Assembly (NCBI GenBank): GCA_031409655.1
Contig: JANNXQ010000170.1
Location: 43,150 to 107,149 of the forward strand
From: Chthoniobacteraceae bacterium
Lineage (GTDB): Bacteria > Verrucomicrobiota > Verrucomicrobiia > Chthoniobacterales > Chthoniobacteraceae
Direction: 5' to 3'
Length of the DNA stretch: 64,000 nucleotides
Shown one piece after another: positions 10,075-33,019 of the stretch (position 1 is its first letter; each line of letters starts with the position of its first letter). The notes under the pieces are model-generated. The model ran no database searches. It had not been told where the DNA came from and saw only the letters and a program-made list of their open reading frames with translations. The position numbers and the translations under genes are program-made.

Positions 10075-10107
10075 CGCGGCCGCGCAGGCCAGGCGGGTGG
10101 ATTGGTA

Positions 10108-10181
10108 CTCACCCTCATCCTCATCATCTTCATCCTCCCGCCGCTGATGATGAAGATGAAGAGGATGAGGATGAGGATGAG
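10108..10181. repeat. Intergenic imperfect inverted repeat built from CTCATC/GATGAG hexamers
   Basis: ctcaccctcatcctcatcatcttcatcctc, short spacer, gatgatgaagatgaagaggatgaggatgaggatgag. Confidence 0.8.
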
Positions 10182-10197
10182 CGTGCGGGACGTAGGC

Positions 10198-11070: not shown

Positions 11071-11127
11071 GTGAGTCGATTTGTTGTTTCCAGTTTTGGG
11101 CGGTCGGATTGAAATTTTCCCTGCTGC

Positions 11128-12399: not shown

Positions 12400-12408
12400 G
12401 AGAACGGT

Positions 12409-13305: not shown

Positions 13306-13306
13306 T

Positions 13307-14194: not shown

Positions 14195-14253
14195 TTTTTG
14201 ATTCAGAGATGATTCACATCCGGACGGGCGCACGATGTCGCACCCACCAGGCG

Positions 14254-14793: not shown

Positions 14794-15253
14794 GTCAGTG
14801 GTTGTATTTGGTTGTGGATCAATGGCTTCACTCCGTTCATTAGGGAGTGAAAACTCAGCGCAAAAAGGGGGCTCGAAGGGGCTCAGTGCCGGGCCGGCGG
14901 GCCAGAAGATGCTGCCGCACTTGGTCTTGTTCCCTCGGCGAGGGGCAGGACCATTGTTCATTTCGTGAACGGGATATTCCAACTTTCATCCGAGAGAGCG
15001 CATCTTGCGCCACGGCACGACTACCTCTTCCTTTTTTATCGAAACGCGGCCGCCAAGGCCATCTTTCAGCGACCAAATCGCACATCGGAATCGCTGAGAT
15101 ATGCCAGTAAGACTTCGTCCTACGTAATTTTGCCAATCACGCACCCGGCTTTGAACCTTTTCAGCCCGATATGTTTACGGGTCCATCAACGACTAGATCT
15201 CCCATTTGGAGGGAACTCTTGTTTTTTCAAAAGGATTTCTGAATAAATGCGAA

Positions 15254-15270
15254 GGTTTTTATCAAAAACC
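15254..15270. promoter_or_regulatory. Perfect 7-3-7 palindrome in the divergent promoter region (candidate operator)
   Basis: GGTTTTT-ATC-AAAAACC in an AT-rich intergenic tract; function inferred only. Confidence 0.35.
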
Positions 15271-15342
15271 CCGCGACTTGTGTTAAAGACCCGTGTTTAT
15301 CTTCACGTTCCCCGGCCTGCTCCACTTCCCTTCCCGAAACCT

Positions 15343-18300
15343 ATGAGACGCTCCTTCCTATTTCCCGCCTTACTCTCTGCGCTTGCGGCCCTGCACGTCC
15401 CGGCCCGTGCCGCGCTCGATATTGGGCCCGGTGGTGGTCCCGGCGACGGCGTACCGGACGTTTGGGCAGCCGTCACCGGCTACACTGGCGACGGTGCATC
15501 TTTATCCGCCGACAGCGATGGGGACGGGCAGACCAATGGAGCCGAGGCGGCTGCGGGGACGAATCCCAACGCTTCGGGAGACGTCATCGCCATCAAGAGC
15601 CTGACCCCCGCCGGGGCCAACCTGAAAATCGATTTCCCGGGAATCGGTGGAAAAAAGTATCAGATGCAAAGCTCGCCGACCCTTTCCCCTGCGAATTTTA
15701 CCAACGTGCCGCAAGCTGCGGGGACGGTAGTCGCCACCGCAGATGCAAATATCCAAGTGACCTTACCAATGGGCGCCGGGTCCAAATACTACCGGGTCGT
15801 GGTCTCGGACATCGACACCGACAGTGATGGCCTGACCGATTACGAAGAACGCAAAATCGGACTGAATCCTCTCTTGCCAGATATCATCGGCGGTTTGAGC
15901 GGTGTCGCCTACGTGAGCGGCCAACTCGCTCTCCCGGATGTGGTGACAGTTGTCGCCACGGATGCCACGGCGTCGGAGGATGGTTCTGATTTCGGAAGCT
16001 TCATGGTGGAGCGGACCCGCAACCTCTTTACCATCGATGTCCCCTACACGGTTTCAGGAACCGCTACACCTGGCGTGGATTACCAGTCTCTGGGAGGATC
16101 GGTGCATCTGATGTTGGGTGAAAACACCGCTTCATTCAACATTGTGCCAACGTCCGAGCCGACGAATGTCGTTGAAAGTGGAGAGTCCGTGACGGTCACC
16201 CTTGCAAATCCATCACTGGTCTATTCACTTGGCACGCCTAGTTCGGCAACCGTGATCATTGGCGAAACCACCGCCACGAGTGGGACTGGTCTGATGGCTC
16301 GTTACTACGACACCGCGAGCGGCAACTACAGCCGACCGGAAAACTTCGGCACCGTTTCGAGTTATACCTACACAAGGCTAACCGCGGCCACCGGGACGGC
16401 AACGATCGCCTACACCGCGACGCCCGCACTTTCTGTGGGACACCAGGTGAACGTGGCCTTTACAGCCGGCAACCTCAATAACGTGCTCTACAGCCCGCTG
16501 CTCTACACCGTGACGGGAGTTACTCCGACGAATTTCACGGTGGCGATTGCCGGCACCGCCTTGCCGACCAACCAAACTACGGCGTCGTCCTGCGTCATTA
16601 GCATCACCAGCTTCCCGCACCCGGCGGTCATCACTCAGGTGGATCCGACGGTGAATTTTGATTGGCAGCACGGGACGCCAAATGGCGTGGTGATCCTGCC
16701 AAACAATTCTCCGGACAATTACTCCGCGTCTTGGGATGCGTATCTCCAACCGACGACTGCTGGGAACTATATTTTCCAGCTTGATGCGGATGACAAAGCG
16801 CGGGTGCTGCTCGATACCGGGGCGGGTTTGGTGCAGATCCTCGAGCACGGTTGGGATGGCCCGGCCACAATTGGAACCTTTAAGCAGAGTGCGCCGATCG
16901 CCCTCTCGGTGCCGGGATCTCCATCCGCGCGCTACCACATTCGGGTGGAGCATGTGGAAACCACGGGTAATGCACGGTGCAGGCTGCAGTGGAGCGCGAA
17001 CGGTGGCACCACTTTCGCCAATATCGCGCAGGCAAATCAGTTCACTCATACCCAGGCAATAACTTATAGCTATACGCAAGCCACGGGTGATGTGGTCGTC
17101 ACTCCTACGGGCGGACATCTTTTCGTGGGTGGCGAAGTCGTCAATCTGACGATGTCATCAGGAAACCTGTTCCTCCCGATCAGCTACAGTGGACCGTACA
17201 CGATCACGGCCGTCAGCGGAACCAGCACTTTCACCGTGAATATCACCGGGACTGGCTTGCCAGCCACTGGCACAGGTTCAGGCTTTCTGGAAAACGCGGC
17301 CAGCACCACGACGGGTCTATTCAACCGCACCTATGCAAACACGGCCTTCACCAGTCCTCCGGGACGCGTTGGCGTGGACGCTGCAGTTACTACTGGGAAT
17401 AATGGCATCTGGAATACCGGAACGCCCGACGTGAATCTCATCCGGCCGGAGACCTTTTCAGTTCGGTGGACCGGTCAGGTGCAACCTCAATTCTCCGAGG
17501 AGTACACCCTCGTGGTGGGGGCCGATGATGGTTGCGCCTTGCGGATCAACGGGCAGTCGCAAATCCTTAGGACGATTCCTTCCGCGAGCACCAGTGGTAG
17601 CACCTACCTCTATGACGCCGGCTCCGGAAATGCGGTGGTCTCCTACCCGGCTTTGATCGTATCTCCTGGCAGCTTTATCGTAGGGGAGTCCGTGCGGCTT
17701 GATCCCAGCAGCGGCAGTCTTTCCCATGCCCCCGCCAGTCCGCCCACCTACCGCTTCGATGACGTTACTGGGGACGTCGTTATTAACTACGCGAACCTGA
17801 CGAACGTGACGCCGGGCGGCTTTGTCGTTGGAGAAACGATCGAACTGGACCCTACCAGCGGCAGTCTCAGCGCTCTGGGTCTCCTCCCGTATACCATTAC
17901 TGCCGCCACGGCGAACACCATCACGGTCAACTCCGGCGGGCTGGGTTTTAATCCGAGGATGAGCGTCGCGGCCATCTCCGTTGGACCTGCTTGTGAGATC
18001 ACCACTGTGCAGAATCACGGCTTGAGCGTCGGCAGCGAGCTGAGGATTTCCTCGGTCGCCACCGGGATTTTCTCACCGGATATCAACAGCCTTTATACGG
18101 TGGTCGCGGTTGTCAGTCCGACTAAGTTCACCGTGGCTTCAAACTGCACGGTCGCTCCCACTGCTGGCACCGGAGTGGTAATCGTATCGGGCAATATCGC
18201 TATCAGCGACAATCGGAATGCGGTCATCACCGCGGCCACGCCCACCACCTTCACGGTCAATATGGGCGCGAACAAGTATGCCAATGCCAGCGCGGGCAAC

Positions 18301-21300
18301 GTAAGCATTGATATTGTCAATAAGCCGCTCAAGGACTGGTCTTCGAGCGCCAACGAACGTTTCGTCCATGTTCCGATGATTGGCGGGGTGCGTTACGACA
18401 TTCAACTCGATTACTACGAGAGCACGAGTGCCGCGAAGTGCCAGCTCTCGTGGTATAGCCCCAGCCAGCCCCGGCAGATTATCCCGAGCAATCGGCTCTA
18501 CCCAACATCCACGCCTGCCTCCCCGCTCGCTCCACCAATTCTCCTCAGTCCGACTTCGGCGGTGGCCTTGGTTGGCGGTGCGTTCTCCTATGCAGTGGTC
18601 GGCAGTAATGGCGCTACGGTCACGGTCAGTGGTAACCCGGCTTGGTTGACCTACAGCGGTGGCGTCCTCAGTGGCACGCCGCCTCCTGGAACGGCTGGGC
18701 ACTACCAGATCGTGGTCACAACTACCGGACCAGCAGGGACTGGGATGTCGGTCATCGAACTCGACGTTCAGGATACCGGTGGGGTGATTGCGCGGGAATA
18801 TTGGAATGGTGTCGAGGGAACGACCATCGCGACGATCCCGACCGGTGCGGTCCCGACGGGCTCCGGGGATCTTTCACAGCTTGCTGCTCCGACCGACTTC
18901 GGAGACAACTATGGCGCGCGGATCCGCGGCTATATCACCGCGCCCGTCACGGGAAATTACTACTTCTGGATCTCCGCCAGCAACGCTGCGGAACTCTGGA
19001 TCGCCAATGATGATGAACCGATCAACACCTTCAAGCGCGCGTCGGTGACGACCGGTAACACCACTCCACAAACGTGGGTTGGTGAAGCAAATCAGAAGTC
19101 CGCCTGGCTGGCTCTGGAAGCCGGTCAAAGATATTATATCGAGATCCTCCACAAAGCCGGCTCCGGTGCTGGGGACAATCTCGCAGTCGGCTGGCTCAAA
19201 CCTGGCGAATCCGGCGCCCTCCCGAGTGAAGTGGTGCCTGGCTATGTGCTCTCGCCGTATGTCGCGCCGTCGTTGCAATCGATCCCCGGGACGCTCTACG
19301 TGGCGACCATGCTCTCGCAGAACGGTGCGGCGACCAGCGGTGTGGGCACGTCCACCCTTCGCCTGAGTGCGGACGAGACGACGGTCATCATGGGCTACAG
19401 TTACAGGGGCCTGACGGGTCCGATCACCTCGCAGCACATTCACACTGATCCCTACCTCTTAAAGCCATCGGAGATCGTCTTCGACATCGATACGCCCGAG
19501 ACGGCGGGGGATGGCTTGATCCTCACGGGTCCTGACGCTGGAAAGTATAAATGGACGATCAAAGATCGAGGAAGCCTCACCGCCCCGGAGATCCGCGAGA
19601 TCATCAAGCAGGGCAAAGCCTACATCAATTTGCATACCGCAATGTTTCCGGCAGGCGAAATACGCGGTAACTATACGTTAGCGAACGGCTCGCGCCTGTT
19701 CACCCCGCCGCCGGCGCCTCCGGCTCTCGCCGACGATCATGCGACCAACAACGGAGCCTCCCGCTTCCTCACGCAGGCGACGTTTGGGCCAAATCCTGCC
19801 GATATCGCGGCGCTGAAAGCGATGGCCAGTTACGATGCCTGGATCAATGACCAGTTCACGAGGCCAGTGAGCTACACCTTGCCCGAAGTCATCAGGACCG
19901 AAAATGCGAGCGCCCAAGGTGCCGCGTTCGATGAAACGCTGGCTTTCAATGCGTGGTGGAAGAGTGCCGTTTCTGCCCCGGACCAGCTCCGGCAGCGAAT
20001 CGCTTATGCATTAAGCCAGATCCACGTCGTATCAGCGCAGGGACCACTCGACAACCGTGCAGAAGCCTTGGCCTATTACTACGACCATCTCGTCAATCAC
20101 GCTTTCGGCAACTTCCGCGACCTCCTCCAAGCGACGACGCTCACGCCGGCCATGGGGCGTTACCTTGACATGAAGGAAAACGACAAGCCTGACCTAACGG
20201 TGGGGCGCATTCCGAACGAAAACTATGCTCGTGAGATCCTGCAGTTGTTCGACCTCGGACTTTTCCGGCTGTGGCCAGATGGCACGTTGATGCTGAATTC
20301 GAAGGACGAATTGATCCCCACCTACACCCAGCGTGAGATCGTCGGTTTTGCCCACCTCTTCACTGGCTGGGACGACGGATACGATGGAGCCTTCCGGACG
20401 ACGCTCGGTGCAGCGACCAATTACACCCGCCCGATGCGGGAGGTGCCCGCCCGCCATTTCACCGGACCGAAGCGCGTGCTGAACAATGAAGTCCTGCCCG
20501 GACTTCAGCAGTTGGGCGGTCAGCCGCTCGACCCTTACGCCACTCATAACGCGACGCAATTCAACGATCCATCCTACCAGGCACTTCCTGGGTTGGAACT
20601 CGCCGTTTCCCATCAGCAGCTTTTCGAGCACCCGAATGTTGGTCCCTTCATCTGTCGCCAGCTCATTCAGAGGATGGTGATGAGCAATCCTTCCCGCGAC
20701 TACTTGTACCGGGTCGTCCAAAAATTCAACAATAACGGCGCGGGGGTGCGCGGCGATCTGAAAGCAGTCATCAAGGCGATCCTCCTCGACTACGAAGCCC
20801 GCAGTAGCTCGGAAACAACGAAGCCGATCTATGGAAAGCAGCGGGAACCGGTGCTCCGCGTCGCCGCAGCGGGACGGGCTTTCCGGCAGGCCGCTTGGAC
20901 CGGAACCTACACGCAGAGCGCCTCACCGAGCAGCACGTCACGGACGATTACGGTCAGCACCTCGACGGCCCACAAACTAGTCACCGGTAACAATGTGTTT
21001 CTCGACTTTTCCGACACTACGGGAGACGTCGCCAAACCCGCGCCGTGGATCGGTACTTACTCGGCAACCGTCACGGGAAACAATACGTTCACGGTTCAGG
21101 CGAACGGATGGGCCACCGGAACTTATAACATCCCGGCGAATTCCACTGTGTGTACCGTAAGTATGGGCAGCCATTGGCTCGAAGCGACTGAACAGGCGTA
21201 CTTCGACTTTACCAGCGGACCCGCGGACGGCCTCGCCGGTTTCGATAACACCGTGCATCCGGCGGTCACGTCGAACGCCAGTAATACTGTTGCCGGTACG

Positions 21301-22293
21301 ACTTTCACGATCACCGTTCCGACGTCAGCTAGCGCGCGGTCCGGCAACGTGATGATCCCGCGATTCGCACCGGGCAGCTACACCACCTCGGCTTCGGGTC
21401 TCGCGGCACCGCGAGACCGCCGTGTGACGATGGATACCAATTTCGACCATCACCTCAAAGTCGGTGATCAGGTGCAAATTAACTTCTTCCAAGGTAATCC
21501 CCTGCCTGTTGACATGGTAGCTACCGTAGAATCCGTCGTGGACATGAACACTTGGACTTTCCTCGCGCCATCGCTCGGAACGAATCTCGGAACCAACCAA
21601 GGGAACAACAATGTCTATCAGTTCCCGCTGCTCGCTCAACCGTTGACTCGGAGTGGGACCGTGGGTTCACGCCCGAGCACGTTCAACATGGGCAACACTG
21701 AAGGGGATATGGACCAGGCTCCGTTGAACTCTCCGACCGTGTTTAACTTCTATCTGCCGGACTACAAGTTCCCTGGAGCGCTTGCCTCGCAGGGCATCAC
21801 GACTCCCGAGTTCCAGGAAACGGCTGAGACTTCGGTCATCCGCCAGGCGAACTTCTTAGAGCGCGGCATCTACGCACTGGGAAACACCAATGGCGTAAGC
21901 AGCTTCAAGAACGGCACCAATGCATTGGTCATGGATTTGAGCCCGTGGATGGCGAACGCGGTCGGTACCGTTTCGCCAGGTCTGGAGCTTGGAGCCGGCA
22001 CCAGCACCACGCGGCCTTGGACGCACGATCAAAACCTCAGCGTTCTCATCGACCGTTTCAGTACGGTGCTTCTTGGTGCGGCTTTGCCCGCGGCTGTGAA
22101 GACCCAAATCACAACCTTCGTCCAGACACGCACAAATATGGGTTCTGCCTATAATCAATTCACTAATCCTTACACCAATATTCCCTACAATAACTCGGGC
22201 ACAACGACTGCGACCGATCCCGAGAAGACTAATCGCATCCGGGCAATTCTGCACCTCATCCTCACCTCCCCCGACTTCACCATCCAGCGCTAA
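15343..22293 (+). CDS. Giant secreted multidomain DUF1800-family protein, copy 1 (signal peptide, Ca-binding DxDxDG repeats, Calx-beta, 3 PA14-like domains, Ig-like domain, CHRD, DUF1800, 8 beta modules)
   Basis: Signal peptide MRRSFLFPALLSALAALHVPARA; DSDGDGQTNGAEAAAGTNP; GTATPGVDY (Calx-beta); FSVRWTGQVQP..EEYT..ADDG (PA14); QHIH...GKAYINLHTAMFPAGEIRG (CHRD); ASRFLTQATFGP, DQLRQRIAYALSQI, PAMGRYL, PNENYAREILQLF, GKQREPVLR, SPTVFNFYLPDY (DUF1800). Confidence 0.9.
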   Translation: MRRSFLFPALLSALAALHVPARAALDIGPGGGPGDGVPDVWAAVTGYTGDGASLSADSDGDGQTNGAEAAAGTNPNASGDVIAIKSLTPAGANLKIDFPGIGGKKYQMQSSPTLSPANFTNVPQAAGTVVATADANIQVTLPMGAGSKYYRVVVSDIDTDSDGLTDYEERKIGLNPLLPDIIGGLSGVAYVSGQLALPDVVTVVATDATASEDGSDFGSFMVERTRNLFTIDVPYTVSGTATPGVDYQSLGGSVHLMLGENTASFNIVPTSEPTNVVESGESVTVTLANPSLVYSLGTPSSATVIIGETTATSGTGLMARYYDTASGNYSRPENFGTVSSYTYTRLTAATGTATIAYTATPALSVGHQVNVAFTAGNLNNVLYSPLLYTVTGVTPTNFTVAIAGTALPTNQTTASSCVISITSFPHPAVITQVDPTVNFDWQHGTPNGVVILPNNSPDNYSASWDAYLQPTTAGNYIFQLDADDKARVLLDTGAGLVQILEHGWDGPATIGTFKQSAPIALSVPGSPSARYHIRVEHVETTGNARCRLQWSANGGTTFANIAQANQFTHTQAITYSYTQATGDVVVTPTGGHLFVGGEVVNLTMSSGNLFLPISYSGPYTITAVSGTSTFTVNITGTGLPATGTGSGFLENAASTTTGLFNRTYANTAFTSPPGRVGVDAAVTTGNNGIWNTGTPDVNLIRPETFSVRWTGQVQPQFSEEYTLVVGADDGCALRINGQSQILRTIPSASTSGSTYLYDAGSGNAVVSYPALIVSPGSFIVGESVRLDPSSGSLSHAPASPPTYRFDDVTGDVVINYANLTNVTPGGFVVGETIELDPTSGSLSALGLLPYTITAATANTITVNSGGLGFNPRMSVAAISVGPACEITTVQNHGLSVGSELRISSVATGIFSPDINSLYTVVAVVSPTKFTVASNCTVAPTAGTGVVIVSGNIAISDNRNAVITAATPTTFTVNMGANKYANASAGNVSIDIVNKPLKDWSSSANERFVHVPMIGGVRYDIQLDYYESTSAAKCQLSWYSPSQPRQIIPSNRLYPTSTPASPLAPPILLSPTSAVALVGGAFSYAVVGSNGATVTVSGNPAWLTYSGGVLSGTPPPGTAGHYQIVVTTTGPAGTGMSVIELDVQDTGGVIAREYWNGVEGTTIATIPTGAVPTGSGDLSQLAAPTDFGDNYGARIRGYITAPVTGNYYFWISASNAAELWIANDDEPINTFKRASVTTGNTTPQTWVGEANQKSAWLALEAGQRYYIEILHKAGSGAGDNLAVGWLKPGESGALPSEVVPGYVLSPYVAPSLQSIPGTLYVATMLSQNGAATSGVGTSTLRLSADETTVIMGYSYRGLTGPITSQHIHTDPYLLKPSEIVFDIDTPETAGDGLILTGPDAGKYKWTIKDRGSLTAPEIREIIKQGKAYINLHTAMFPAGEIRGNYTLANGSRLFTPPPAPPALADDHATNNGASRFLTQATFGPNPADIAALKAMASYDAWINDQFTRPVSYTLPEVIRTENASAQGAAFDETLAFNAWWKSAVSAPDQLRQRIAYALSQIHVVSAQGPLDNRAEALAYYYDHLVNHAFGNFRDLLQATTLTPAMGRYLDMKENDKPDLTVGRIPNENYAREILQLFDLGLFRLWPDGTLMLNSKDELIPTYTQREIVGFAHLFTGWDDGYDGAFRTTLGAATNYTRPMREVPARHFTGPKRVLNNEVLPGLQQLGGQPLDPYATHNATQFNDPSYQALPGLELAVSHQQLFEHPNVGPFICRQLIQRMVMSNPSRDYLYRVVQKFNNNGAGVRGDLKAVIKAILLDYEARSSSETTKPIYGKQREPVLRVAAAGRAFRQAAWTGTYTQSASPSSTSRTITVSTSTAHKLVTGNNVFLDFSDTTGDVAKPAPWIGTYSATVTGNNTFTVQANGWATGTYNIPANSTVCTVSMGSHWLEATEQAYFDFTSGPADGLAGFDNTVHPAVTSNASNTVAGTTFTITVPTSASARSGNVMIPRFAPGSYTTSASGLAAPRDRRVTMDTNFDHHLKVGDQVQINFFQGNPLPVDMVATVESVVDMNTWTFLAPSLGTNLGTNQGNNNVYQFPLLAQPLTRSGTVGSRPSTFNMGNTEGDMDQAPLNSPTVFNFYLPDYKFPGALASQGITTPEFQETAETSVIRQANFLERGIYALGNTNGVSSFKNGTNALVMDLSPWMANAVGTVSPGLELGAGTSTTRPWTHDQNLSVLIDRFSTVLLGAALPAAVKTQITTFVQTRTNMGSAYNQFTNPYTNIPYNNSGTTTATDPEKTNRIRAILHLILTSPDFTIQR

Positions 22294-22298
22294 GCCCT

Positions 22299-23792
22299 AT
22301 GAGCTCCGAACAAGATCCCAAAGTCTCCACACGCCGCGATTTCATCCGCCAGGCTTCGTGCGCTGCCGTCGGCACGTGGGCGATCACCAGCACGATCCGC
22401 GACCTGCGGCTCATCAATGCCGCCGTCGCGCAGACCGGCCTGACAGGATACAAGGCCCTGGTCTGTCTTTTCCTGTCGGGCGGCAATGACGCGAACAACT
22501 GGATCGTTCCGACCGATACCGCAACTTACAATGAGTATGCGGGATTGCGCGGAATCCTGGCGATCCCGAAGACATCGCTCCGGCCGCTTTGGAGTAACGC
22601 AGCCGGAACGACGCCCTATACCGACACCGACGGGCATACTCACGGTTTCCATCCCGCTTGCACCGAACTCGAGACGCTCTTCAAGGAAGATAAGCTCGCG
22701 GTGATTTTCAATGTCGGGACATTGGTTCGTCCAACCAGCCGCGAGCAATACCTCTCAGCCAATCCCTTTTACCGGCCACCTCAACTCTTCTCCCATAGCG
22801 ATCAAGTGACCCAATGGCAGACGTCCATTCCAGACCAACCACCCGCCACCGGATGGGGAGGGCGTTGCGCGGATCTATTGGACGCGACCGCAAACCCGAC
22901 AGGAGCCATTTCTATGTCGGTCTCGCTGAACGGAGCGAATACTTTTGAGGTTGGGAATATCATCTCGCAATACCACGTCTCCAGTGCTGGGGCCGTGACT
23001 TTATCGAACCTAAGTTCGGCCAAGATTGCGACGATGAGGGCGATCTTTAATCCGACGATCCCGATTTCAACCGCCAGCAACGCCGTGAACCTTCAGCGCG
23101 CGGCCTACGCGGAGGTATTGGATCGTGCGGTGGAAACCGGGAATTTGCTGAATACGAGCATTGAGGGCACGGCCATGGCAACCGACACTCCTCTAGGAAC
23201 CTGGGTGTGGACTGCGCCGTTCCCGAATACTGGCTTGGGCAACCAAATGAAGATGATCGCGCGTTTGATTGCCGCCCGCGGCCCGACCGGATTCAACATG
23301 AAGCGCCAGATCTTTTTCTGCTCGGTGGGTGGTTACGACACCCACACCAACCAAATCACCTTCAATAACAACGGAACAACCGATCCGACCACGGGCACCC
23401 ACGCCAATCTCCTCGGTGAGGTGAGCGACTGCGTCTTCGCTTTTCAGCGCGCGATGGAGCAACTCGGTGTTTCCGATCAAGTCACAACCTTCACCGCGAG
23501 CGACTTTGCCCGCACCTTCCCAACGAACTCGCAGGGAAGCGATCACGGTTGGGGTAGCCACCACATCATGGTGGGCGGGGCCGTTAAAGGCGGCCAGACC
23601 TATGGTCATCTTCCTACCCTTGTCATCAATGGACCAACCGACACTGGCTTGGGTCGCTGGATACCCACGACCTCTGTCGACCAGCACGCCGCCACGCTCG
23701 CGCGCTGGTTTGGAGTTGACTCATCAAATCTCGCGTCGATCTTCCCAAACTTGAGCCGTTTCCCCACATCGAATCTCGGGTTCATGCTTTGA
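22299..23792 (+). CDS. Tat-exported DUF1501-family protein, copy 1
   Basis: TRRDFIR Tat motif; YKALVCLFLSGGNDANN, LFSHSDQ, GGYDTH, SDFART, GSDHGWGSHH, GRWIPTTSVDQ, FPNL motifs. Confidence 0.92.
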   Translation: MSSEQDPKVSTRRDFIRQASCAAVGTWAITSTIRDLRLINAAVAQTGLTGYKALVCLFLSGGNDANNWIVPTDTATYNEYAGLRGILAIPKTSLRPLWSNAAGTTPYTDTDGHTHGFHPACTELETLFKEDKLAVIFNVGTLVRPTSREQYLSANPFYRPPQLFSHSDQVTQWQTSIPDQPPATGWGGRCADLLDATANPTGAISMSVSLNGANTFEVGNIISQYHVSSAGAVTLSNLSSAKIATMRAIFNPTIPISTASNAVNLQRAAYAEVLDRAVETGNLLNTSIEGTAMATDTPLGTWVWTAPFPNTGLGNQMKMIARLIAARGPTGFNMKRQIFFCSVGGYDTHTNQITFNNNGTTDPTTGTHANLLGEVSDCVFAFQRAMEQLGVSDQVTTFTASDFARTFPTNSQGSDHGWGSHHIMVGGAVKGGQTYGHLPTLVINGPTDTGLGRWIPTTSVDQHAATLARWFGVDSSNLASIFPNLSRFPTSNLGFML

Positions 23793-24110
23793 ATCAGCTA
23801 TGCACTGAGGTGCATTGATTTCCCTGGGGGAGATTCCTTGATCGTCTGTAGCCAAAGCAGTTGGGGAAAAGGCTTGGGTTCTTAGTTGCACGTTGGGCGA
23901 TCACACGTACCAAAAAAAGTCCGCGGTGACACGACTTTTGCAGGAGAATTAGTCCGGGCCAGCGTTTTTCGTAGATGAGTCCAAATGTCACGATTTCAAG
24001 GGATTCTTCTTGCTTAAGGACACGAAAATGTTGAAATATTTATCTTCACGCAAAGTCCCCCCTTGGGAGATCGGACCGTGAATCGCCCTTTCCGAAGTTA
24101 CCCCAGTTCC

Positions 24111-27100
24111 ATGAGCCGATTCACTCGCTTCCTTGCCGCACTTGCGGCTTCTTTTGCGTTAATTCCAACCGGCCGGGCCGCTCTGGACGTATCGCCAGCC
24201 GACGGAATCCCCGATATCTGGGCGCTCGTCCAGGGTGTCAGCGTGCTCACCCCAGCAGGAGATGACGACGGCGATGGGCAGACGAATGTGGCCGAGGCTG
24301 CCGCCGGTACCAATCCGAAGAACGCCACCGAAGTTCTCAAGATCAAGAGCATCACGAAAAGCGGGAGCAATGTGACGCTGATCTTCCCGGCGATCTTATC
24401 GAAGAAATATGAGGTGCAAGGGGCGACAACTCTCACGACGACTCCCCCAACGAATTTCGTGACGATCGGTTCCCCATTTGTTCCCGGGGCCGACGGTGAT
24501 TACACGGCTGTCGTTGCTGCCGGTAGCGCCAAATTCTTCAGGGTTCTGGTCTCCGATTTGGATACCGATAACGATGGTCTTTCAAATTACGAGGAGCGGA
24601 TGATCGGCCTGAATCCGCTCCTCGCTGATAGCGATGGCGACACGGTCAGCGACCTGAATTATGTTACCGCGCAGCTTGCCCTGGCAGATACGCTCTCCAT
24701 CCGCGCCTTGGAGTCGATCGCCTCGGAGGACGGTCCGACTTCCGGCGAATTCGAGGTTTACCGCAGTCGTAGTCTCTTCACCATCAACGTGCCTTACGAC
24801 GTTGGTGGCACGGCTACGGTCTCCACGGATTACGCAGCATTGGCGGGTTCGGTTACGCTCGCCCGCACCTTCACGTCAGCGAAGTTTAACGTAAATCCAA
24901 ACCCCGATAGCATCGTGGAAGGAAGTGAGTCCGTGCAGGTCACGCTGACGCCGCCGCCGGGGGGCCTCAGCAGCCAGTACCTGCTGGGTAGCCCAAGTGT
25001 CGCAACGGTTATTATTACCGACAAGACGACGCCCGTTGGGACGGGCCTCACCGCGCGGTACTATGACCATGCCAACACCATCTACGCGCACGCCGCCAAC
25101 TTTGGTGACGCTGCGAGCTACGCTTACACCCGGTCCGGCACGACGCCGAACTTCACCGGCTCTGTCGTCATTACGCCGACCGGATTGACGCCGGACCGGC
25201 TGACCACGGTCCTGGCGGCGGTCACGGTGAACGGCCAGGTGAAGCTCTCTTTCAACGGAGGCAACCTGAATACTGCCGTTTACAACCACCAGAACTACAC
25301 TGTGACGGCGAAGAACGCGACGAGCTTCACGTGCACGGTGCCTCCTGGCGCATCTCTCCCGGGAAGCAGCAGCAGCACCTGCAATTTCAGTATCCAACCC
25401 CTCCACCCAGCGGTGATCGACCGCATCGATACGGTGGTCAACAATGACTGGGCCTACGGTACACCGAATGGAGTGACGTTGGCGACTCACGGCGCTCCTC
25501 GCCTGGCCAATTTCCCGGACGATTACTCCGCGTCGTTTGAGACTTATCTGGTGCCAACTACGACAGGTTCTTACCGTTTCCAGTTCGATGCGGATGACAA
25601 AGCCAGGGTCTTGCTCGATACCGGGAGCGGCTTGGTGGAGATCCTCGAGCACGGCTGGGACGGCGCCACCACGCCGGAGACCATCGGTGTTTTCAAGGTG
25701 AGCGCCGCGTCCTATACCCTCACCGCAGGTCAGCGCTACAAGATGCGCGTGGAGCATGTCGAGACGACCGGCGATGCGCGTTGCCGTCTGCAATGGAGCC
25801 GGGACTTGGGCGGTTTTGTCAACATCCCTCAGGCCGAGCAGATCACGCAAACGCAGGCGGCCACTTATGTGTTTAACAAGCTGACGACGACTACCGGCAC
25901 GGCCGTCATCACCCTCACGTCGCATGGCTTGAACAATGGCGACCCTGTCACGCTCGCGTTCTCCACAAGCAACCTCTTCACGCCGGCAAGCTATAGTGGC
26001 AATTACACCGTCGCCAATGCCACGACGAATACCTTCGAGGTGGCGATTGCGGATCCCGTTGCGGTGCCGAACACGGTCGCGGCGGGCCAGGGTTGTTTTC
26101 TCGAAAATCGGCCCCTGAGCACCACGACCGGCGTGTTCAATAGGACTTACGCGGGCACCGCATTTGCCGGATTCCCGCTGCGAGTTGGTGTCGATGGCGC
26201 GGTCACGACCGGAAACAACGGCATTTGGGGTTCAGGCACGCCTGATGTGGGCCTTGTTTCCCCCAGCACGTACATCAATCCCGACACCTTCTCGATTCGC
26301 TGGACGGGCCAGGTGCAGCCACAGTTCACGGAAGAGTACACCTTCGTGGTTCATGCGGATGAAGGCAGCACCCTCAAGATCAACGGCCAGACGCAGGAGA
26401 TGCAGGCGGCTCCGTCCTCGATCGTGGGCGGCAGCACCTACCTCTATGACAACGCGACCGGCAATACGGTCATCAACTACTCTGGGAATGCGGTCAAGCC
26501 GGGCGGGTTTATCGTTGGTGAAACGATCAGGCTTGATCCCAGCACCGGCAACCTGACCCATCCCAATGGCAGCACCTACAGCTACGACTCCGTCACGGGC
26601 CTGGCCGTGATTGACTTCTCCAATCTGACATCTGTCCTGCCGAACGGCTTCGGCGTCGGACGGATTGTGGAAATCGACCCGACTGGGGGCACCGCTTCGG
26701 CCTTGGCGAATGCGCGCTACACGATTACCGCGGCGACTGCGACCACCTTCACGGTGAGCTTTGGCGTTGGCGCGTTTGCGCCGCAGGCTGTGGCACCCAC
26801 GGCCACCATCAATGTGACTGACAACAGGAATGCAGTCATCACGGCAGTTCACGCCACCGGCACCGGCACGTACGCCTACAGTTCCACCACGGGCGATGCT
26901 GTCATCGACTACACGGGCCTGGGCATTCCCAATAATACCGTCACCGTCGGCCAGAGCGTGGCGCTCGACCCTAGCAGCGGCAATCTGAGTACCTTGCCCA
27001 ACGCATTTGCGACGGTCACCGCTGCGACGGCGACTACGTTCACCGTGAACTACGGCACCAGTTTCACGACCGGCAACGGCAACGTCGTTATCATTGCGCC

Positions 27101-30100
27101 ATCCAACGGTTTGGTCGATCCGGCCGTGACTACGGCTTTCACCGTCAATTTTGAACCGGCCAAGTATGCCAACGCTAGCATTGGCACTATGAACGTGGAG
27201 GTCATCAATAAGCCGCTCAAAGAGTGGTCCTCGATGGGCAATGAGCGTTACGTGCGCATCCCTGTCGTCGGCGGCACGCGGTATGACATCCAGCTCGATA
27301 CGTATGAGAATACGAGCTATGCGCGGGCCATTCTTTATTGGTACAGCCCCAGCCAGACGAAACAGGTCATCCCGACGGAGCGTCTTTATCCCACCTCAGT
27401 GCCACAGGCTCCGGTGGCACACGCTGGTGCGACAGAGGCTGCCGCAGTCGTCGGCTCGGCCTTCAACTATTTGGTGGGCGGAACCAATGGCAGCTCGGTC
27501 ACCGTCTCCGGGCTCCCGGCCGGGCTGACCTACAACGCCGGGGTCATCAGTGGCACGGCGACAACCGCAGGCGATTATCAAGTCCTGCTCACGATCACGA
27601 ACGGTGTGGGTACGAGCACCTCGGTTCTCAATCTGCATGTGGAAGCGCCGGCCGGCTCCATCGTGCGCGAACATTGGAACGGCGTCGCGGGAACGGCAGT
27701 GGCGAATCTTTCCACGGAAATTGCGGCTGGCACACCGCCGACGGGCACGACGAACCTTAGCTCTTTGGAAGGACCGACCGACTTCGGCGACAATTATGGC
27801 GCTCGCATTCGCGGTTACATCACCGCTCCGGTCACCGGCAATTACTACTTCTGGATCGCGGCCAGCAATGCCGCCGAGCTTTGGATTTCCAATGATGACG
27901 AGCCGGTCAGCGCGCTGAAGCGGGCTTCGGTGGCGACTGGTAACACGACGCCTCGTACGTGGAGCGGCGAAGTGAAACAGAAATCGCCGTGGCTCGCTCT
28001 GGAGGCCGGGCAAAGGTATTACGTCGAAATCCTGCACAAGGCCGGAACAGGCGCAGGCGACAACCTCGCGGTCGGCTGGCGCAAGCCGGGCGAGACCGGC
28101 ACCGCGCCGAGCGAAGTCGTGCCTGGGAATGTGCTCTCTCCGTATGTGGCACCGGCACCGGGCTCGACCCCTGGCACCCTCTACGTAGCCACGATGCTGG
28201 CGCAGAACGGCGCGGTGACCAAGGGCGTGGGAGTGGCCACTTTCCGCCTGAGCGACGATGACAATGTGGCCTACATCAAGTTTGACCGGCAGGGATTCCT
28301 GAACCCGCCTTATAATGGCCTGACGGGAATAATGACGGATTGGCACGTGCATAACGATCCGTATCTCACCCGCCCTTCGAGCATTATGTTCGATCCGAAT
28401 GCCCCGCCCGCCAACAGTGGCTTGCAGCCGGACGGCAGCTTTAAGTGGACGATACCCAACCTGGTTGGAACGATTCCCAAGGCCGAAGTCGTGGAACTGA
28501 TCAAGCAGGGTAAGGCTTACATCAATATCCATACTACGGCTTATCTGAATGGAGAAATCCGCGGCAACTTCACCTTGGCCAGCGGCACCCGCACCTTCAC
28601 CCCGCCGCCGGCGCCGCCGGCGTGGACCGACGACAGCAGCACTAATGACGGAGCCTCCCGCTTCCTTGCGCAGGCTTCCTTTGGGGCTAACATCGCCGAC
28701 ATCACCGCTTTGAAGGCACTGGCAGCGACTGGCGCTGTTCCCACTGCGGGGATCCCGGCCAGCCGCTACGACAAGTGGATCGACAATCAGTTCCTCGTTG
28801 GCGCTACCCAGCATCTGCCGGAAGTTCTGGCGCGTGAGTATGGGAATGTGTTCGGCCCTTTTGATGTCTCGTTGAGTTTCAACGCTTGGTGGAAGGCATC
28901 GATGACCGCCCCGGATCAGCTCCGGCAGCGCGTGGCTTTCGCCTTGAGTGAGATTCACGTGGTCTCCGGTCAGGGGCCGCTGGAGGATAATGCCCGCGCC
29001 ATTTCGGACTTTTACGACACGCTGGCTACCAATGCCTTCGGCAACTTCCGGGACATCGTGGTCGGCACCACTCTCACTCCGGGAATGGGTCGCTATCTGG
29101 ATATGCTGCGCAACGACAAGCCCGATATCTCGGTCGGACGCAGCCCCAATGAAAACTACGCCCGCGAGATCAAACAGCTTTTCACCATCGGACTCTACGA
29201 GATGTGGCCGGATGGCAGCTTGAAGCTCACCTCCAAGGATGCACCGATCGATACCTACACCCAGCGGGAGATTGTCGGCCTTTCGCATGTCTTCACCGGA
29301 TGGGACTACGCGTACGACGGTGCTTACCGCACGGCGTTCGGTGCTACGGCGGACTGGACCCGGCCGATGCGCGAGATTCCCGCCCGGCACTTCACGGGTC
29401 AGAAGCGCGTCTTGAACAACGAGGTGCTGCCGGGGCTTTCTACGGTGGGTGGCCAGCCGTTGGATCCGAATGCGACCCATATCACCACGCATTTCAACGA
29501 CCCCGCGTATCAGGCGCTCGCCGCGCAGGAACTCACCGCCGCGCATGACATGCTCTTCAATCATCCGAACGTCGGCCCGTTTATCTGCCGGCAGCTCATT
29601 CAGCGTCTGGTGACGGCCAACCCGTCGCGCGACTATCTCTATCGTGTAGTCCAGAAGTTCAATGACAATGGGTCGGGCGTGCGCGGGGACATGAAGGCAG
29701 TGATCAAAGCCATTCTGCTGGATTACGAAGCGCGGAGCACCGGTCAATTCGCGATCCCGGCTTACGGCAAACAGCGTGAACCGATCATGCGCGTCGCCCA
29801 AGCGGCCCGTGCGCTCCGGCCGAACAACGTGACCGGAACGTATACTCAGAATAACTCGAACCTGATCACCATCGCCACGAGCACTTCGCATCTGCTTACC
29901 GATGGGGAAAGCGTCTTCCTGGAGTTCGCCGATGCCACGGCGGCCGGAGCGCAACCCGCGCCGACCACTGGCTCGTACATTGTGAACGTCATCAATGCGA
30001 CTTCCTACACCATCGACGCCCCGGGCTGGATGGTCGGATCCTACAATCAGTCGGCGGGCTCCAATGTGATGACCATCACGATGTCTGGGCATTATTTGCC

Positions 30101-31526
30101 CGGGAATAATGCCAACGTGATCCCGTCGGTCCAGGTGCTGCCAACTGCAAACAAGGGACAAGCCTATTTCGATTTCACCAGTGGCACAGCCAATGGCCTG
30201 GCTGGTTTCGACCAAACGGTCCGATCGGTCGCCACTTCCACGTCGTATGATATCCCCAGCGCGGTAGGTAATACGGCAACGGCGCCCAACATCAATGGGA
30301 ATGCCTCCGGGACGACCTTCACGATCACCGCGCCGGATACCACGGCGCGCAGTGGAAACCTGAGGGTCTCGCGCTTCCCCAGTAGCTACCAGAGCACGGG
30401 CCGGGCTGGCGTCATCACGATCGACACTTCATATGGTGGGTCCGGTACGTTCGGACAGCAGGCAGATCATGGACTGTCCGTTGGGGACGCCATGTTCCTC
30501 AATTTCTACGGATCGCGGGATACGACTTCGTTTAACGAAACCTCCACGGAGAACGATCTCGTCTATACCGTTGCGAGCGTTCCCGATGCGAATACCTTCA
30601 CGGTCGCGGCACGGGATGCAGCCAATGCGGCGATGAACAGTGGCAACGAAGTCATCGTGTTCCCGCTCGAGGCGCAGCCTTTGGTTCGCAACGGGACAAT
30701 CTCCGCGCGTCCCTCCACCTTTGCGATGAGCAACACGGACGGGGACCTTCAGCAGACGCCACTGAACTCGACGACGGTGTTCAACTTCTTCCTGCCCGAC
30801 TACAAGTACGCCGGGACGCTGGCTTCGCAGGGCATCACCACTCCGGAGTTCCAGATCACGTCAGAGACCACGGCCATGCGTCAGGCAAACTTCCTCTTCA
30901 ATGGTGTTTTCAATCCTTCAGGGAGCACCACCGGGGTCAGTAGCTTTAAGTCTGGAACTCACGCGTTGGTCATGGACCTGAGCCGTTGGATGAACGGCAA
31001 CGCGGCAAACTTGGGCCTCGGCGTCCCAACCAGCACCTTGGTGCCGTGGACGCAGAATCAAAACCTCGCTGAACTTATCAACCAGCTCAGTACGCTGCTG
31101 ATGGCCGGGCGCCTGCCGCAACCGGCCAAGGATATCATCAAGAACTTCATCGCCACGCCGATCACCTCCATCGGCACCGGCAATCCATGCTTGGTGACGA
31201 CGACTGTTGCGCACGGGTTGAAGACTGGTGATGTCGTACTTGTCAGCGGCGTCGCGGACGGAACGTTTGGTGGTGTCGCAAACAGCTTGAATAACACGAA
31301 CACCACGCGGGCCGTGACGGTGACGGGACCGACCGACGGAACCTCGACAACGTTCACGATTCCGTTGAGTTGCACGATTGCCCCGACTGGTCTGACCAAC
31401 GCCCATGTCTCGGTGATTCCCTACAATCAGGGTGACACGACTCCTAACGTCACCGACAAGCTCGGTCGCTTGCGCACCATCATCCATCTTATCCTCACCA
31501 GCCCCGATTACACCATCCAGCGATAG
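24111..31526 (+). CDS. Giant secreted multidomain DUF1800-family protein, copy 2 (same scaffold, 9 beta modules)
   Basis: Signal peptide MSRFTRFLAALAASFALIPTGRA; same domain order and motifs as copy 1 (PNENYAREIKQLF, GKQREPIMR, HLILTSPDYTIQR). Confidence 0.9.
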   Translation: MSRFTRFLAALAASFALIPTGRAALDVSPADGIPDIWALVQGVSVLTPAGDDDGDGQTNVAEAAAGTNPKNATEVLKIKSITKSGSNVTLIFPAILSKKYEVQGATTLTTTPPTNFVTIGSPFVPGADGDYTAVVAAGSAKFFRVLVSDLDTDNDGLSNYEERMIGLNPLLADSDGDTVSDLNYVTAQLALADTLSIRALESIASEDGPTSGEFEVYRSRSLFTINVPYDVGGTATVSTDYAALAGSVTLARTFTSAKFNVNPNPDSIVEGSESVQVTLTPPPGGLSSQYLLGSPSVATVIITDKTTPVGTGLTARYYDHANTIYAHAANFGDAASYAYTRSGTTPNFTGSVVITPTGLTPDRLTTVLAAVTVNGQVKLSFNGGNLNTAVYNHQNYTVTAKNATSFTCTVPPGASLPGSSSSTCNFSIQPLHPAVIDRIDTVVNNDWAYGTPNGVTLATHGAPRLANFPDDYSASFETYLVPTTTGSYRFQFDADDKARVLLDTGSGLVEILEHGWDGATTPETIGVFKVSAASYTLTAGQRYKMRVEHVETTGDARCRLQWSRDLGGFVNIPQAEQITQTQAATYVFNKLTTTTGTAVITLTSHGLNNGDPVTLAFSTSNLFTPASYSGNYTVANATTNTFEVAIADPVAVPNTVAAGQGCFLENRPLSTTTGVFNRTYAGTAFAGFPLRVGVDGAVTTGNNGIWGSGTPDVGLVSPSTYINPDTFSIRWTGQVQPQFTEEYTFVVHADEGSTLKINGQTQEMQAAPSSIVGGSTYLYDNATGNTVINYSGNAVKPGGFIVGETIRLDPSTGNLTHPNGSTYSYDSVTGLAVIDFSNLTSVLPNGFGVGRIVEIDPTGGTASALANARYTITAATATTFTVSFGVGAFAPQAVAPTATINVTDNRNAVITAVHATGTGTYAYSSTTGDAVIDYTGLGIPNNTVTVGQSVALDPSSGNLSTLPNAFATVTAATATTFTVNYGTSFTTGNGNVVIIAPSNGLVDPAVTTAFTVNFEPAKYANASIGTMNVEVINKPLKEWSSMGNERYVRIPVVGGTRYDIQLDTYENTSYARAILYWYSPSQTKQVIPTERLYPTSVPQAPVAHAGATEAAAVVGSAFNYLVGGTNGSSVTVSGLPAGLTYNAGVISGTATTAGDYQVLLTITNGVGTSTSVLNLHVEAPAGSIVREHWNGVAGTAVANLSTEIAAGTPPTGTTNLSSLEGPTDFGDNYGARIRGYITAPVTGNYYFWIAASNAAELWISNDDEPVSALKRASVATGNTTPRTWSGEVKQKSPWLALEAGQRYYVEILHKAGTGAGDNLAVGWRKPGETGTAPSEVVPGNVLSPYVAPAPGSTPGTLYVATMLAQNGAVTKGVGVATFRLSDDDNVAYIKFDRQGFLNPPYNGLTGIMTDWHVHNDPYLTRPSSIMFDPNAPPANSGLQPDGSFKWTIPNLVGTIPKAEVVELIKQGKAYINIHTTAYLNGEIRGNFTLASGTRTFTPPPAPPAWTDDSSTNDGASRFLAQASFGANIADITALKALAATGAVPTAGIPASRYDKWIDNQFLVGATQHLPEVLAREYGNVFGPFDVSLSFNAWWKASMTAPDQLRQRVAFALSEIHVVSGQGPLEDNARAISDFYDTLATNAFGNFRDIVVGTTLTPGMGRYLDMLRNDKPDISVGRSPNENYAREIKQLFTIGLYEMWPDGSLKLTSKDAPIDTYTQREIVGLSHVFTGWDYAYDGAYRTAFGATADWTRPMREIPARHFTGQKRVLNNEVLPGLSTVGGQPLDPNATHITTHFNDPAYQALAAQELTAAHDMLFNHPNVGPFICRQLIQRLVTANPSRDYLYRVVQKFNDNGSGVRGDMKAVIKAILLDYEARSTGQFAIPAYGKQREPIMRVAQAARALRPNNVTGTYTQNNSNLITIATSTSHLLTDGESVFLEFADATAAGAQPAPTTGSYIVNVINATSYTIDAPGWMVGSYNQSAGSNVMTITMSGHYLPGNNANVIPSVQVLPTANKGQAYFDFTSGTANGLAGFDQTVRSVATSTSYDIPSAVGNTATAPNINGNASGTTFTITAPDTTARSGNLRVSRFPSSYQSTGRAGVITIDTSYGGSGTFGQQADHGLSVGDAMFLNFYGSRDTTSFNETSTENDLVYTVASVPDANTFTVAARDAANAAMNSGNEVIVFPLEAQPLVRNGTISARPSTFAMSNTDGDLQQTPLNSTTVFNFFLPDYKYAGTLASQGITTPEFQITSETTAMRQANFLFNGVFNPSGSTTGVSSFKSGTHALVMDLSRWMNGNAANLGLGVPTSTLVPWTQNQNLAELINQLSTLLMAGRLPQPAKDIIKNFIATPITSIGTGNPCLVTTTVAHGLKTGDVVLVSGVADGTFGGVANSLNNTNTTRAVTVTGPTDGTSTTFTIPLSCTIAPTGLTNAHVSVIPYNQGDTTPNVTDKLGRLRTIIHLILTSPDYTIQR

Positions 31527-31531: not shown

Positions 31532-33019
31532 ATGAGAACCGACCAAGATCCCAAACTTACGAATCGCAGAGATTTCATCCGGCAGGCCTCCTGTGCCGCA
31601 GTCGGCTCGCTGGCGCTCAAGAGCACCATCCGGGATCTGCGCCTGATCAATTCCGCGCTCGCCGTGCAGCCCGCATTGACTGGCTACAAAGCACTGGTCT
31701 GCGTGTTTCTCAGTGGGGGAAATGACTCGAACAACTGGATCGTCCCGACCGATCCTACGACGTTCGCGGATTACACCTCCATCCGCGGCAATCTCGCGCT
31801 CGCGCAGCCGTCTTTGCTCCCCTTGTGGGCGAACGCGGCTGGCACCATACCCTACACGGACTCTGATGGTCACACGTATGGCTTCCATCCCAGTTGTCCG
31901 GAACTCCAGACCCTCTTTAAGGAAGACAAGCTGGCCGTAGTCCTCAATGTGGGAACCATCGTGCGCCCGACCACTCGCACACAGTATCTGTCCGGCCTCC
32001 AAGCGTATCGGCCGCCACAGCTTTTTTCGCACAGTGATCAGGTCACGCAGTGGCAAACCTCGATCCCCGACGTTCCCCCGACCACGGGGTGGGGCGGTCG
32101 TGTCGCCGATCTCGTCAATGCCGCAGCGTCGAATCCGTCGAATAGCATCTCCATGTCCGTCTCCGTCAGCGGGGCGAACACCTTCGAGATCGGAAACCTC
32201 ATCTCACAATACCAAGTCTCCACCACCGGGGCAGTGGTCCTGACGGGAGACACGCTGATGACGAGCGGCGGTCCACGTTCGCGCGCTTTCCAGGCGATCG
32301 CCCGTCTTTCCGACATCAATTTGCAGCGGACGGCAGTGGCCGATGTGACCAAGAATGCGATCGCAAAGGGCGATCTGCTCAACGCCAACATTTCTGACAC
32401 AGCGCTCGATACGTATTGGAATGTTCCATTCCCCAATACGACCCTTGGCAATGAATTGAAGATGGTCGCCCGCCTGATCCAGGCGCGCGGATCGACGAAA
32501 TTCAACATGAAGCGTCAGATCTTCTTCACGTCGGTCGGCGGGTACGACACGCATACTTCGCAGGTCTCGGTGAATGGACAAGACCAGCCGGAGAGCCCGC
32601 AGGGCGCACATTACCGGCTCCTCGATGAGGTGAGCTCCTGTATGTTCGCGTTCCAGCGCGCGATGGAACAACTTGGCGAGTCGAACAATGTCACGGCATT
32701 CACGGCCAGCGATTTTGCCCGCACCCTTCCGACCAACAGCCAGGGCAGCGATCATGGCTGGGGCGGTCATCACATCATCGTGGGTGGCGCAGGCGGTGCC
32801 ACAGGCGCAGTGAAGGGCGGGAAGACCTACGGCCAACTGCCCGTGTTGGCGATCAATGGCCCGAATGACACCGGCCTGGGCCGCTGGATCCCGACCATTG
32901 CGGTCGATCAACATGCGGCCACGCTGGCGAAATGGTTCGGCGTGGATTCAACGGAGATGGATGCCATTTTCCCGAATCTAAATCGTTTCTCGACTCGAGA
33001 TCTGCTCTTCATGGCCTGA
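31532..33019 (+). CDS. Tat-exported DUF1501-family protein, copy 2
   Basis: NRRDFIRQASCAAVG; GGNDSNN, LFSHSDQ, GGYDTH, SDFART, GSDHGWG; colinear with copy 1. Confidence 0.92.
   Translation: MRTDQDPKLTNRRDFIRQASCAAVGSLALKSTIRDLRLINSALAVQPALTGYKALVCVFLSGGNDSNNWIVPTDPTTFADYTSIRGNLALAQPSLLPLWANAAGTIPYTDSDGHTYGFHPSCPELQTLFKEDKLAVVLNVGTIVRPTTRTQYLSGLQAYRPPQLFSHSDQVTQWQTSIPDVPPTTGWGGRVADLVNAAASNPSNSISMSVSVSGANTFEIGNLISQYQVSTTGAVVLTGDTLMTSGGPRSRAFQAIARLSDINLQRTAVADVTKNAIAKGDLLNANISDTALDTYWNVPFPNTTLGNELKMVARLIQARGSTKFNMKRQIFFTSVGGYDTHTSQVSVNGQDQPESPQGAHYRLLDEVSSCMFAFQRAMEQLGESNNVTAFTASDFARTLPTNSQGSDHGWGGHHIIVGGAGGATGAVKGGKTYGQLPVLAINGPNDTGLGRWIPTIAVDQHAATLAKWFGVDSTEMDAIFPNLNRFSTRDLLFMA

Follow-up and report, generated by a model that had tools for sequence, protein, structure and literature searches.

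A PA14 domain probably split by a three-deep nest of small barrel modules in a giant DUF1800 protein from the Verrucomicrobia

Introduction

How is a protein built when one small module appears to sit inside another, that one inside a third, and all three inside a larger domain? The question is raised by P0001, a giant DUF1800 protein encoded within a 64,000-nucleotide stretch of DNA (the window) from a Chthoniobacteraceae bacterium. An earlier note on this DNA had described modules of about 80 residues inserted into each other and into two PA14 domains of P0001, and the motifs it quoted all lie in frame, in a single open reading frame (ORF), no more than some 12 bases from the positions it gave. 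Here we argue that the second PA14 domain carries a three-deep nest of predicted barrels that probably arose by in-frame insertion into loops, and that this nest likely forms a branch on a secreted glycan-binding protein, probably acting with a DUF1501 partner. We give this explanation as a whole a probability of roughly 0.6.

15247..22293, + strand: giant DUF1800 protein P0001, an ORF of 2,348 codons

The probable start of P0001, implied by a 2,316-amino-acid database record, is the ATG at 15343, and it is followed by a stretch that, judged by eye, resembles a signal peptide. Pfam places TSP3 repeats and Calx-beta, PA14, CHRD and DUF1800 domains in the protein, the last with 243 bits against a PF08811 cut-off of 26.1; we count three PA14 domains among these, and eight barrel modules besides. 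Close relatives carry the names Chthoniobacter, Prosthecobacter, Brevifollis and other Verrucomicrobia.

Results

Sequence evidence for a nest in PA14 #2

The central evidence comes from the second PA14 domain (PA14 #2), in which we distinguish three modules, A, B and C. Its parts, and the third PA14 domain that follows, are these:

17302..17598, + strand: PA14 #2, N-terminal half, with the DD motif (PF07691 positions 3-80)
17599..17745, + strand: module A, strands 1-3 (A1), level 1
17746..17955, + strand: module B, strands 1-5 (B1), level 2, in the strand 3-4 loop of A
17956..18183, + strand: module C, a complete two-cysteine FCCH-type barrel, level 3, in the strand 5-6 loop of B
18184..18210, + strand: module B, strand 6 (B2), which directly follows strand 5 of B in homologues without C
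18211..18318, + strand: module A, strands 4-6 (A2)
18319..18507, + strand: PA14 #2, C-terminal half (PF07691 positions 96-145)
18787..19266, + strand: PA14 #3, uninterrupted and lacking the DD motif (GLEYA/PA14 match; motif read from sequence)

In separate scans, each half of PA14 #2 matches its own, complementary part of PF07691, and both halves give 43.1 bits against a cut-off of 24. The earlier note had expected that removing the inserts would raise the PA14 score, and it does: with a hidden Markov model (HMM) built from 21 uninterrupted PA14 domains, the halves joined in a script score 110.9 bits as one domain, compared with 65.1 and 41.6 bits in their native order, and the best of 100 controls with shuffled tails reaches 69.3 bits. 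Module A behaves in the same way with a 79-position HMM built from 39 intact B modules. A1 joined to A2 scores 80.7 bits over positions 1-77 (maximum of 200 shuffles, 62.1), and the native start of A2 is the best among 2,312 scored 36-mers of P0001.

The DD motif, which has a calcium- and sugar-related role in PA14 domains, is present in PA14 #1 and #2 and nearly invariant in the homologue alignments. Profile annotation sees little of the modules: they score about 15-16 bits against PF16190 and PF12195, below the cut-offs of 29.5 and 35, with C giving a weak PF12195 match (E 0.019), and a precomputed PF16190 match falls somewhere in 34 of 120 listed homologues.

Stepwise states among homologues and paralogues

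A search of proteins with this region as the query returned 262 of the 7,995 candidates scored. Insert lengths at the PA14 #2 site were compared in 140 proteins, made up of the best 120 of the 262 database proteins and 20 from loci. The insert measures 0-29 residues in 16 of the 140, 100-109 in two, 180-199 in 53, 250-299 in 48 and 340-379 in 21. No lengths between these classes occur in this set, and the steps of about 85 residues correspond to 0, 1, 2, 3 and 4 modules. The states found among relatives (guests in brackets) are none, A, A[B], A[B[C]], A[B][D], A[B[C]][D], A[B[E]] and A[B[E]][D], and the source genome by itself holds 0 (C294), A (C4), A[B] (C127), A[B[C]] (P0001) and A[B][D] (P0002). 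Wherever C, B or A is absent, in homologues or in paralogues of the source genome, the flanks join directly. Module type E occupies the site of C in two of the 140 proteins. The PA14 #2 host apparently stays functional, since its DD motif survives in 62 of the 69 proteins that have at least three modules and in 45 of the 53 that have two. The paralogue P0002 has a true bifurcation, its module A hosting both B and D, and no fourth level of nesting was seen in the regions read. One apparent five-module protein, P0123, was a pattern artefact and is actually A[B]. Iterated module HMMs drifted to one generic profile, and subtype names taken from them are unreliable.

By sequence, A, B and D form one subfamily (43-52% mutual identity), and C, at 21-32% identity to them, belongs to a separate two-cysteine subfamily. 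Of 61 copies of the latter found by pattern, 28 lie in B; the subfamily is also present near the C-terminus and within the DUF1800 domain in relatives. In a tree built on the core without its modules, most proteins that have no insert diverge first, A and A[B] come next, and proteins with C and D are scattered. Copies of C within B mostly cluster together, with weak support, a pattern that points to a single origin and to later loss or exchange between paralogues. Three loops receive the inserts, those between strands 3-4, 4-5 and 5-6; in two distant paralogues, judged by eye, the 2-3 loop does so too.

Predicted structures

Two AlphaFold2 models were made, one of 17299-18510 (model 1; 404 residues, 31 aligned sequences) and one of 16279-17304 (model 2; 30 aligned sequences). 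Model 1 has a mean predicted local distance difference test score (pLDDT) of 80.5 and a predicted template modelling score (pTM) of 0.67, with six strands each in A (3+3), B (5+1) and C. In a fold comparison against 48,161 chains, the alignments of PA14 chains comprise 96-108 residues and extend over model residues 42-404; the example 6qe7 has Z 10.8 and a root-mean-square deviation (rmsd) of 2.1 over 96 residues. Such alignments exceed what either half could supply, so both halves are needed.

The modules are predicted to be six-stranded barrels of FCCH/RIFT type. Module C (model residues 218-297) matches the UBA1 FCCH with Z 10.4, the phi92 endosialidase barrel with Z 9.6 and, in a second fold search, the UBA6 FCCH with Z 12.1 (rmsd 1.8, 77 aligned); overall, the FCCH and endosialidase barrels align to it at Z 9.6-12.1, rmsd 1.8-2.1 and 75-77 residues. 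Module B matches RIFT barrels only when its distant last strand is included (Z 7.3, rmsd 1.9, 66 aligned), flavin-type RIFT barrels aligning 66-76 residues over model residues 142/144-303/305, which is the span of B1 plus B2. A, B and M1, a module in PA14 #1 described below, match flavin-reductase and riboflavin-synthase RIFT barrels at least as well as the FCCH and endosialidase barrels. The close module termini that the earlier note had proposed would fit a barrel fold known as an insert in E1, endosialidase and phage lyase. When the 404-residue model was compared with the PDB by Foldseek, most matches were long and of low TM-score and served as a pointer only, and a viral structure library matched many phage structural proteins, without ranges.

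Complementary profile halves, splice tests, the stepped homologue series and the predicted structure thus bear out the claim that C lies in B, B in A and A in PA14 #2. That modules A and B split PA14 #2 can hardly be doubted, and a fold nested to three levels is very likely. The proposal that the protein is branched rather than linear also agrees with the predicted model, where PA14 and B are discontinuous, and with the double occupancy of module A in P0002.

PA14 #1 and the modules around it

16282..16350, + strand: PA14 #1, first strand and loop (contiguous with the remaining PA14 in homologues without M1; pLDDT below 50 in the model)
16351..16617, + strand: barrel module M1, inside PA14 #1 (pLDDT 80-97 per block; RIFT-barrel matches at Z about 8)
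16618..17046, + strand: PA14 #1, remainder, with the DD motif (PF07691 positions 20-140, E 2.6e-11)
17053..17295, + strand: barrel module M2, in the linker between PA14 #1 and #2 (un-nested in P0001; phi92 endosialidase barrel match)

A split of PA14 #1 by one module was also part of the earlier proposal, and here the alignments and the model part company: homologues without M1 support it, whereas the first strand is not placed by the model. The M1 site holds an insert of 80-109 residues in 112 of 132 homologues and of fewer than 20 in 13, with seven unresolved, and in six close homologues without M1 the flanks of PA14 #1 join directly. The remainder of the domain scores 44 bits against the PF07691 cut-off of 24. 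In model 2, M1, the PA14 #1 core and M2 fold confidently; the core matches 6qe7 with Z 10.7 (rmsd 2.1, 98 aligned), M1 a barrel with Z 8.1 (rmsd 2.8, 87 aligned) and M2 the phi92 endosialidase barrel with Z 8.3 (rmsd 2.2, 77 aligned). M2 was absent from the earlier note.

Elsewhere, M2 itself becomes a host: between one and five modules of type E, spread over two of its loops, are present in the Prosthecobacter-like homologues L074, L097, P0007, P0012 and P0101. The unit of PA14 #1 plus M2 is tandemly duplicated in P0038 and P0076.

Weighing the nested reading

Several observations count against the picture drawn so far. Joining the parts of PA14 #1 gains little (88.9 against 77.1 bits, with a maximum of 85.7 among 100 shuffles); in model 2 its first strand and residues 114-148 have pLDDT below 50, the PA14 matches begin near residue 141, and the reunion of the domain is not reproduced. 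The first 50 or so residues of PA14 #2 are of low confidence in model 1. Both models were built on only 30-31 aligned sequences and are read here as ranges and scores, not as coordinates. The last strand of B is not significant by HMM (107.3 against 104.5 bits, shuffles up to 107.4) because it is too short; other 9-mers outscore it in the join test, and its assignment rests on the homologue comparison and the predicted model. States 0 and A are under-sampled, the search query having contained the inserts, and all cases of both come from loci. The core tree (122 rows, 20 dropped) was rooted on a distant paralogue by choice, with state labels taken from patterns. As to function, sugar binding by these barrels is argued by analogy, and C and D are probably dispensable, because they vary among close relatives.

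Two further points concern module A. The second half of B joined to A1 scores nearly as well as A2 does, and neither fold search of model 1 returned a row spanning A1 to A2. They leave room for a crossed fold, in which A1 would pair with the second half of B and the first half of B with A2, or in which B would be five-stranded: the swapped joins score 79.6 bits against 80.7-82.0, and A is not covered by any fold-search row. The RIFT matches, however, run over residues 143-305, that is B1 plus B2, and none runs over 96-303, while both halves of A have pLDDT of about 84-96 per block. We consider a crossed fold highly improbable; the reunion of A as drawn in the nested fold is supported by sequence and by confidently predicted strands.

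Origin of the nest

If the nested fold is right, barrel copies were probably added by repeated in-frame insertion into loops. The likely order runs from no insert to A and then to a copy of A's own subfamily, B, placed within A; C would have come later, from the separate two-cysteine subfamily found elsewhere in these proteins, and D and E would have entered other loops or the same one. C and D have seemingly been lost, gained or exchanged repeatedly among paralogues. Each split domain is predicted to refold around its guest, giving a stalk PA14-A-B-C.

Because A and B belong to one subfamily, their strand order fits a second route equally, in which half-barrels would have been duplicated in tandem twice in succession, first strands 1-3 and next strands 4-6, giving the same linear order as A[B]. 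The 45% identity of A and B, with 66-74% DNA identity in short stretches, is compatible with this route. We nevertheless regard it as improbable: no half-step lengths exist among the 140 proteins, and it is unable to explain C or E, which belong to other subfamilies, or D, M1 and the entry of A into PA14.

Recurrent in-frame insertion at many sites could also recall a mobile element acting at the DNA level, such as an in-frame palindromic insert, or an assembly artefact. In-frame palindromic mobile elements have palindromic ends and near-identical copies in unrelated genes, and these modules have neither. Module boundaries show no inverted repeat, and none of the direct repeats shown exceeds 79%; at the DNA level the modules bear no mark of a mobile element or a recent duplication. 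Of 42,231 ORFs scanned in the source genome, modules are confined to seven DUF1800 giants, with weak E-type matches in one other large ORF. Contigs from four runs of one study, three of which may be source samples, cover the junctions without differences, so the nesting is no assembly artefact, and identical junctions recur in independent assemblies and many genomes. This pair of alternatives is largely refuted, and loop insertion remains the preferred origin.

A second nest in the DUF1800 domain

19735..20901, + strand: DUF1800, N-terminal part (PF08811 positions 1-311)
20902..21666, + strand: second nest in DUF1800, module H probably hosting F and G before its last strand (module HMM; weak PF12195/PF16190)
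21667..22290, + strand: DUF1800, C-terminal part (PF08811 positions 322-418)

The DUF1800 domain is itself interrupted by a second nest, which the earlier note did not contain. Judged by eye from the sequence, its order is likely H[F, G]. The gap in DUF1800 is below 40 residues in four of 141 proteins, 220-319 in 131 and 340-499 in six, and distant paralogues have five or six modules at this site. Modules of type C sit at different sites in the neighbouring paralogues P0001 and P0002: P0002 has a C-type barrel just before the last DUF1800 helix (31160-31420, near residues 2369-2450), where P0001 has none. Outside the DUF1800 family, a 1,961-residue ORF (L110, G000:C107:118569-124451) contains several E-like modules, apparently nested when judged by eye.

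The surrounding locus

22299..23792, + strand: DUF1501 partner gene with a twin-arginine-like signal (PF07394 E 1.6e-25; TIGR01409 under its cut-off)
24063..31526, + strand: paralogue P0002, 52% identical to P0001 (PA14 #2 holds A with B and D, without C)
31532..33019, + strand: second DUF1501 gene, paired with P0002
33166..33771, + strand: third gene, conserved, membrane-anchored and GspG/T2SSG-like as a lead only (tblastn, ESM Atlas)

The DUF1501 gene starts 5 bases downstream of the P0001 gene, and in the source genome 10 of 11 DUF1800 ORFs have a DUF1501 gene adjoining them on the 3' side. The third gene has tblastn matches in 16 of 111 loci, some of which overlap, and the ESM Atlas links it, with a score of 0.97, to a cluster in which 16% of the members have PF08334; it has no match in Pfam. 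A conserved GspG-like gene downstream of DUF1501 suggests a three-gene module. No solved structural relative of DUF1800, DUF1501 or the third gene was found by sequence, PHROGs gave nothing useful, and no RNA holder was listed.

In L053 (G000:C4:5660-7152), and also in L041 and L044, DUF1501 appears to lie in two reading frames, as does the giant gene of L041, which points to frameshifts or assembly errors. On the minus strand, divergent from the giants, a surface-polysaccharide cluster (1774-14332) encodes an ABC-2 transporter pair, GT2/GT4 glycosyltransferases and acyl- and methyltransferases; it was not found next to homologues in the 111 loci, although many of these end before they could reach it. 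A helix-turn-helix regulator with a weak CudC-like match (14254-14982, minus strand) stands between this cluster and the giant genes. Further along, a large minus-strand ORF (57629-60754, 1,041 residues) has Calx-beta and CHB_HEX_C/Fn3-associated domains and is probably secreted.

Discussion

The question of what such a protein might do has an answer that we favour by a modest degree, largely by analogy: P0001 may act at the surface as a branched, glycan-binding scaffold for the DUF1800/DUF1501 pair. PA14 #1 and #2, which keep the calcium/sugar DD motif, would bind glycans; the barrels would extend reach, or add accessory glycan contacts or stiffness, like related phage-tailspike inserts; and the giant protein would probably work with the neighbouring Tat-exported DUF1501 enzyme. 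According to the available parts of the sources, the inserted barrel of a phage K1 lyase contacts polysaccharide and stabilises the enzyme (PMC8822698), an endosialidase barrel has a sialic-acid site (PMC12632334), FCCH domains lie on the outside of phage tail tubes (PMC13576161), and DUF1501 proteins are Tat-exported and of unknown function (PMC5122149, PMC3542564).

A serious rival to this scaffold holds that the nesting is real and near-neutral, the loops tolerating inserts and the barrels acting as passive spacers. The scattering of C and D on the core tree agrees with it, as do the composition of the inserts, of which Thr, Gly, Ser, Ala, Val and Asn together make up 64%, and the occurrence of states 0 to 4 in intact genes. 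It is less easily squared with conserved boundaries and motifs, with the presence of at least A and B in all 120 database homologues examined (though the search favoured such proteins), and with sugar binding by related barrels of phage enzymes in the accessible text of PMC8822698 and PMC12632334. We judge passive spacing rather unlikely, and a branched scaffold the better account.

A more speculative idea goes further. The barrel could be an insertion-tolerant hub that enters, and accepts inserts in, at least three and possibly four of its five loops, and Verrucomicrobia might use it, with recombination among DUF1800 paralogues, to make branched and variable glycan-sensing antennae on a surface enzyme complex. 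Were this so, diversification would proceed through branching topology and not through repeat number.

Deep nesting is seldom met with, and then usually as an end product; here the states are spread over more than 100 natural proteins, with five of the states in one genome, and the series illustrates how side branches were probably added to a protein by one insertion after another. Insertion order, the folding order of nested hosts and loop tolerance become testable with matched natural pairs, and the small barrel offers a natural multi-loop hub for engineering branched proteins. The case also makes clear why annotation by profiles overlooks such domains or breaks them up, and it offers a way into the unexplained DUF1800/DUF1501 pair.

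Comparison with known systems

Nested self-insertion is already known from other proteins, as is the FCCH-type barrel as an insert. The literature search turned up no case of such barrels nested in one another within PA14 or DUF1800 hosts and with intermediates still living, most subscription papers and bioRxiv supplements lying outside the search.

The modules share their six-stranded closed barrel with the E1 FCCH (PF16190; UBA1/UBA6) and the endosialidase barrel (PF12195; phi92, K1F). The FCCH of E1 and the barrel of endosialidase are themselves inserts in their hosts, but single and un-nested copies, unlike the modules here. The rider barrel of the K1 lyase is likewise described as an insert in its host in the available part of PMC8822698.

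With PA14 lectins (PF07691; RsgI 6qe7/6qdi, RTX adhesin 6m8m/6x95, yeast Cea1/Flo/Epa) the PA14 domains of P0001 share the predicted fold (Z 8.0-10.8) and, in #1 and #2, the DD motif. PA14 is commonly itself an insert, in glycosidases; here, unlike in those lectins, it takes the host role, with a single interruption in #1 and a nest of three levels in #2.

The tandem genes and the twin-arginine DUF1501 protein resemble known DUF1800 (PF08811)/DUF1501 (PF07394) pairs, and DUF1501 partners in PVC bacteria often have carbohydrate-binding domains (PMC5122149, PMC3542564, each in the portion available). What differs from the pairs described there is the form of about 2,300 residues, the DUF1800 domain split by barrels and the conserved GspG-like gene that follows.

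The closest parallel is SI3 of the cyanobacterial RNA polymerase beta-prime subunit, whose recursive nesting reaches six levels in the accessible part of PMC13114784. The main text of that paper has no PA14, FCCH or RIFT, and three supplementary files have no PA14, FCCH, DUF1800 or End_beta_barrel, although their tables may use ECOD numbers. Both systems, as far as that source extends, nest small homologous beta modules in the manner of A1-B1-C-B2-A2 and have hosts with more than one insert. SI3 is built of the hybrid-motif fold in a cytoplasmic enzyme, whereas the modules of P0001 are FCCH/RIFT barrels, three deep, in a protein that is likely secreted, and here, in contrast to what is available on SI3, states 0-4 are found among living relatives and within one genome.

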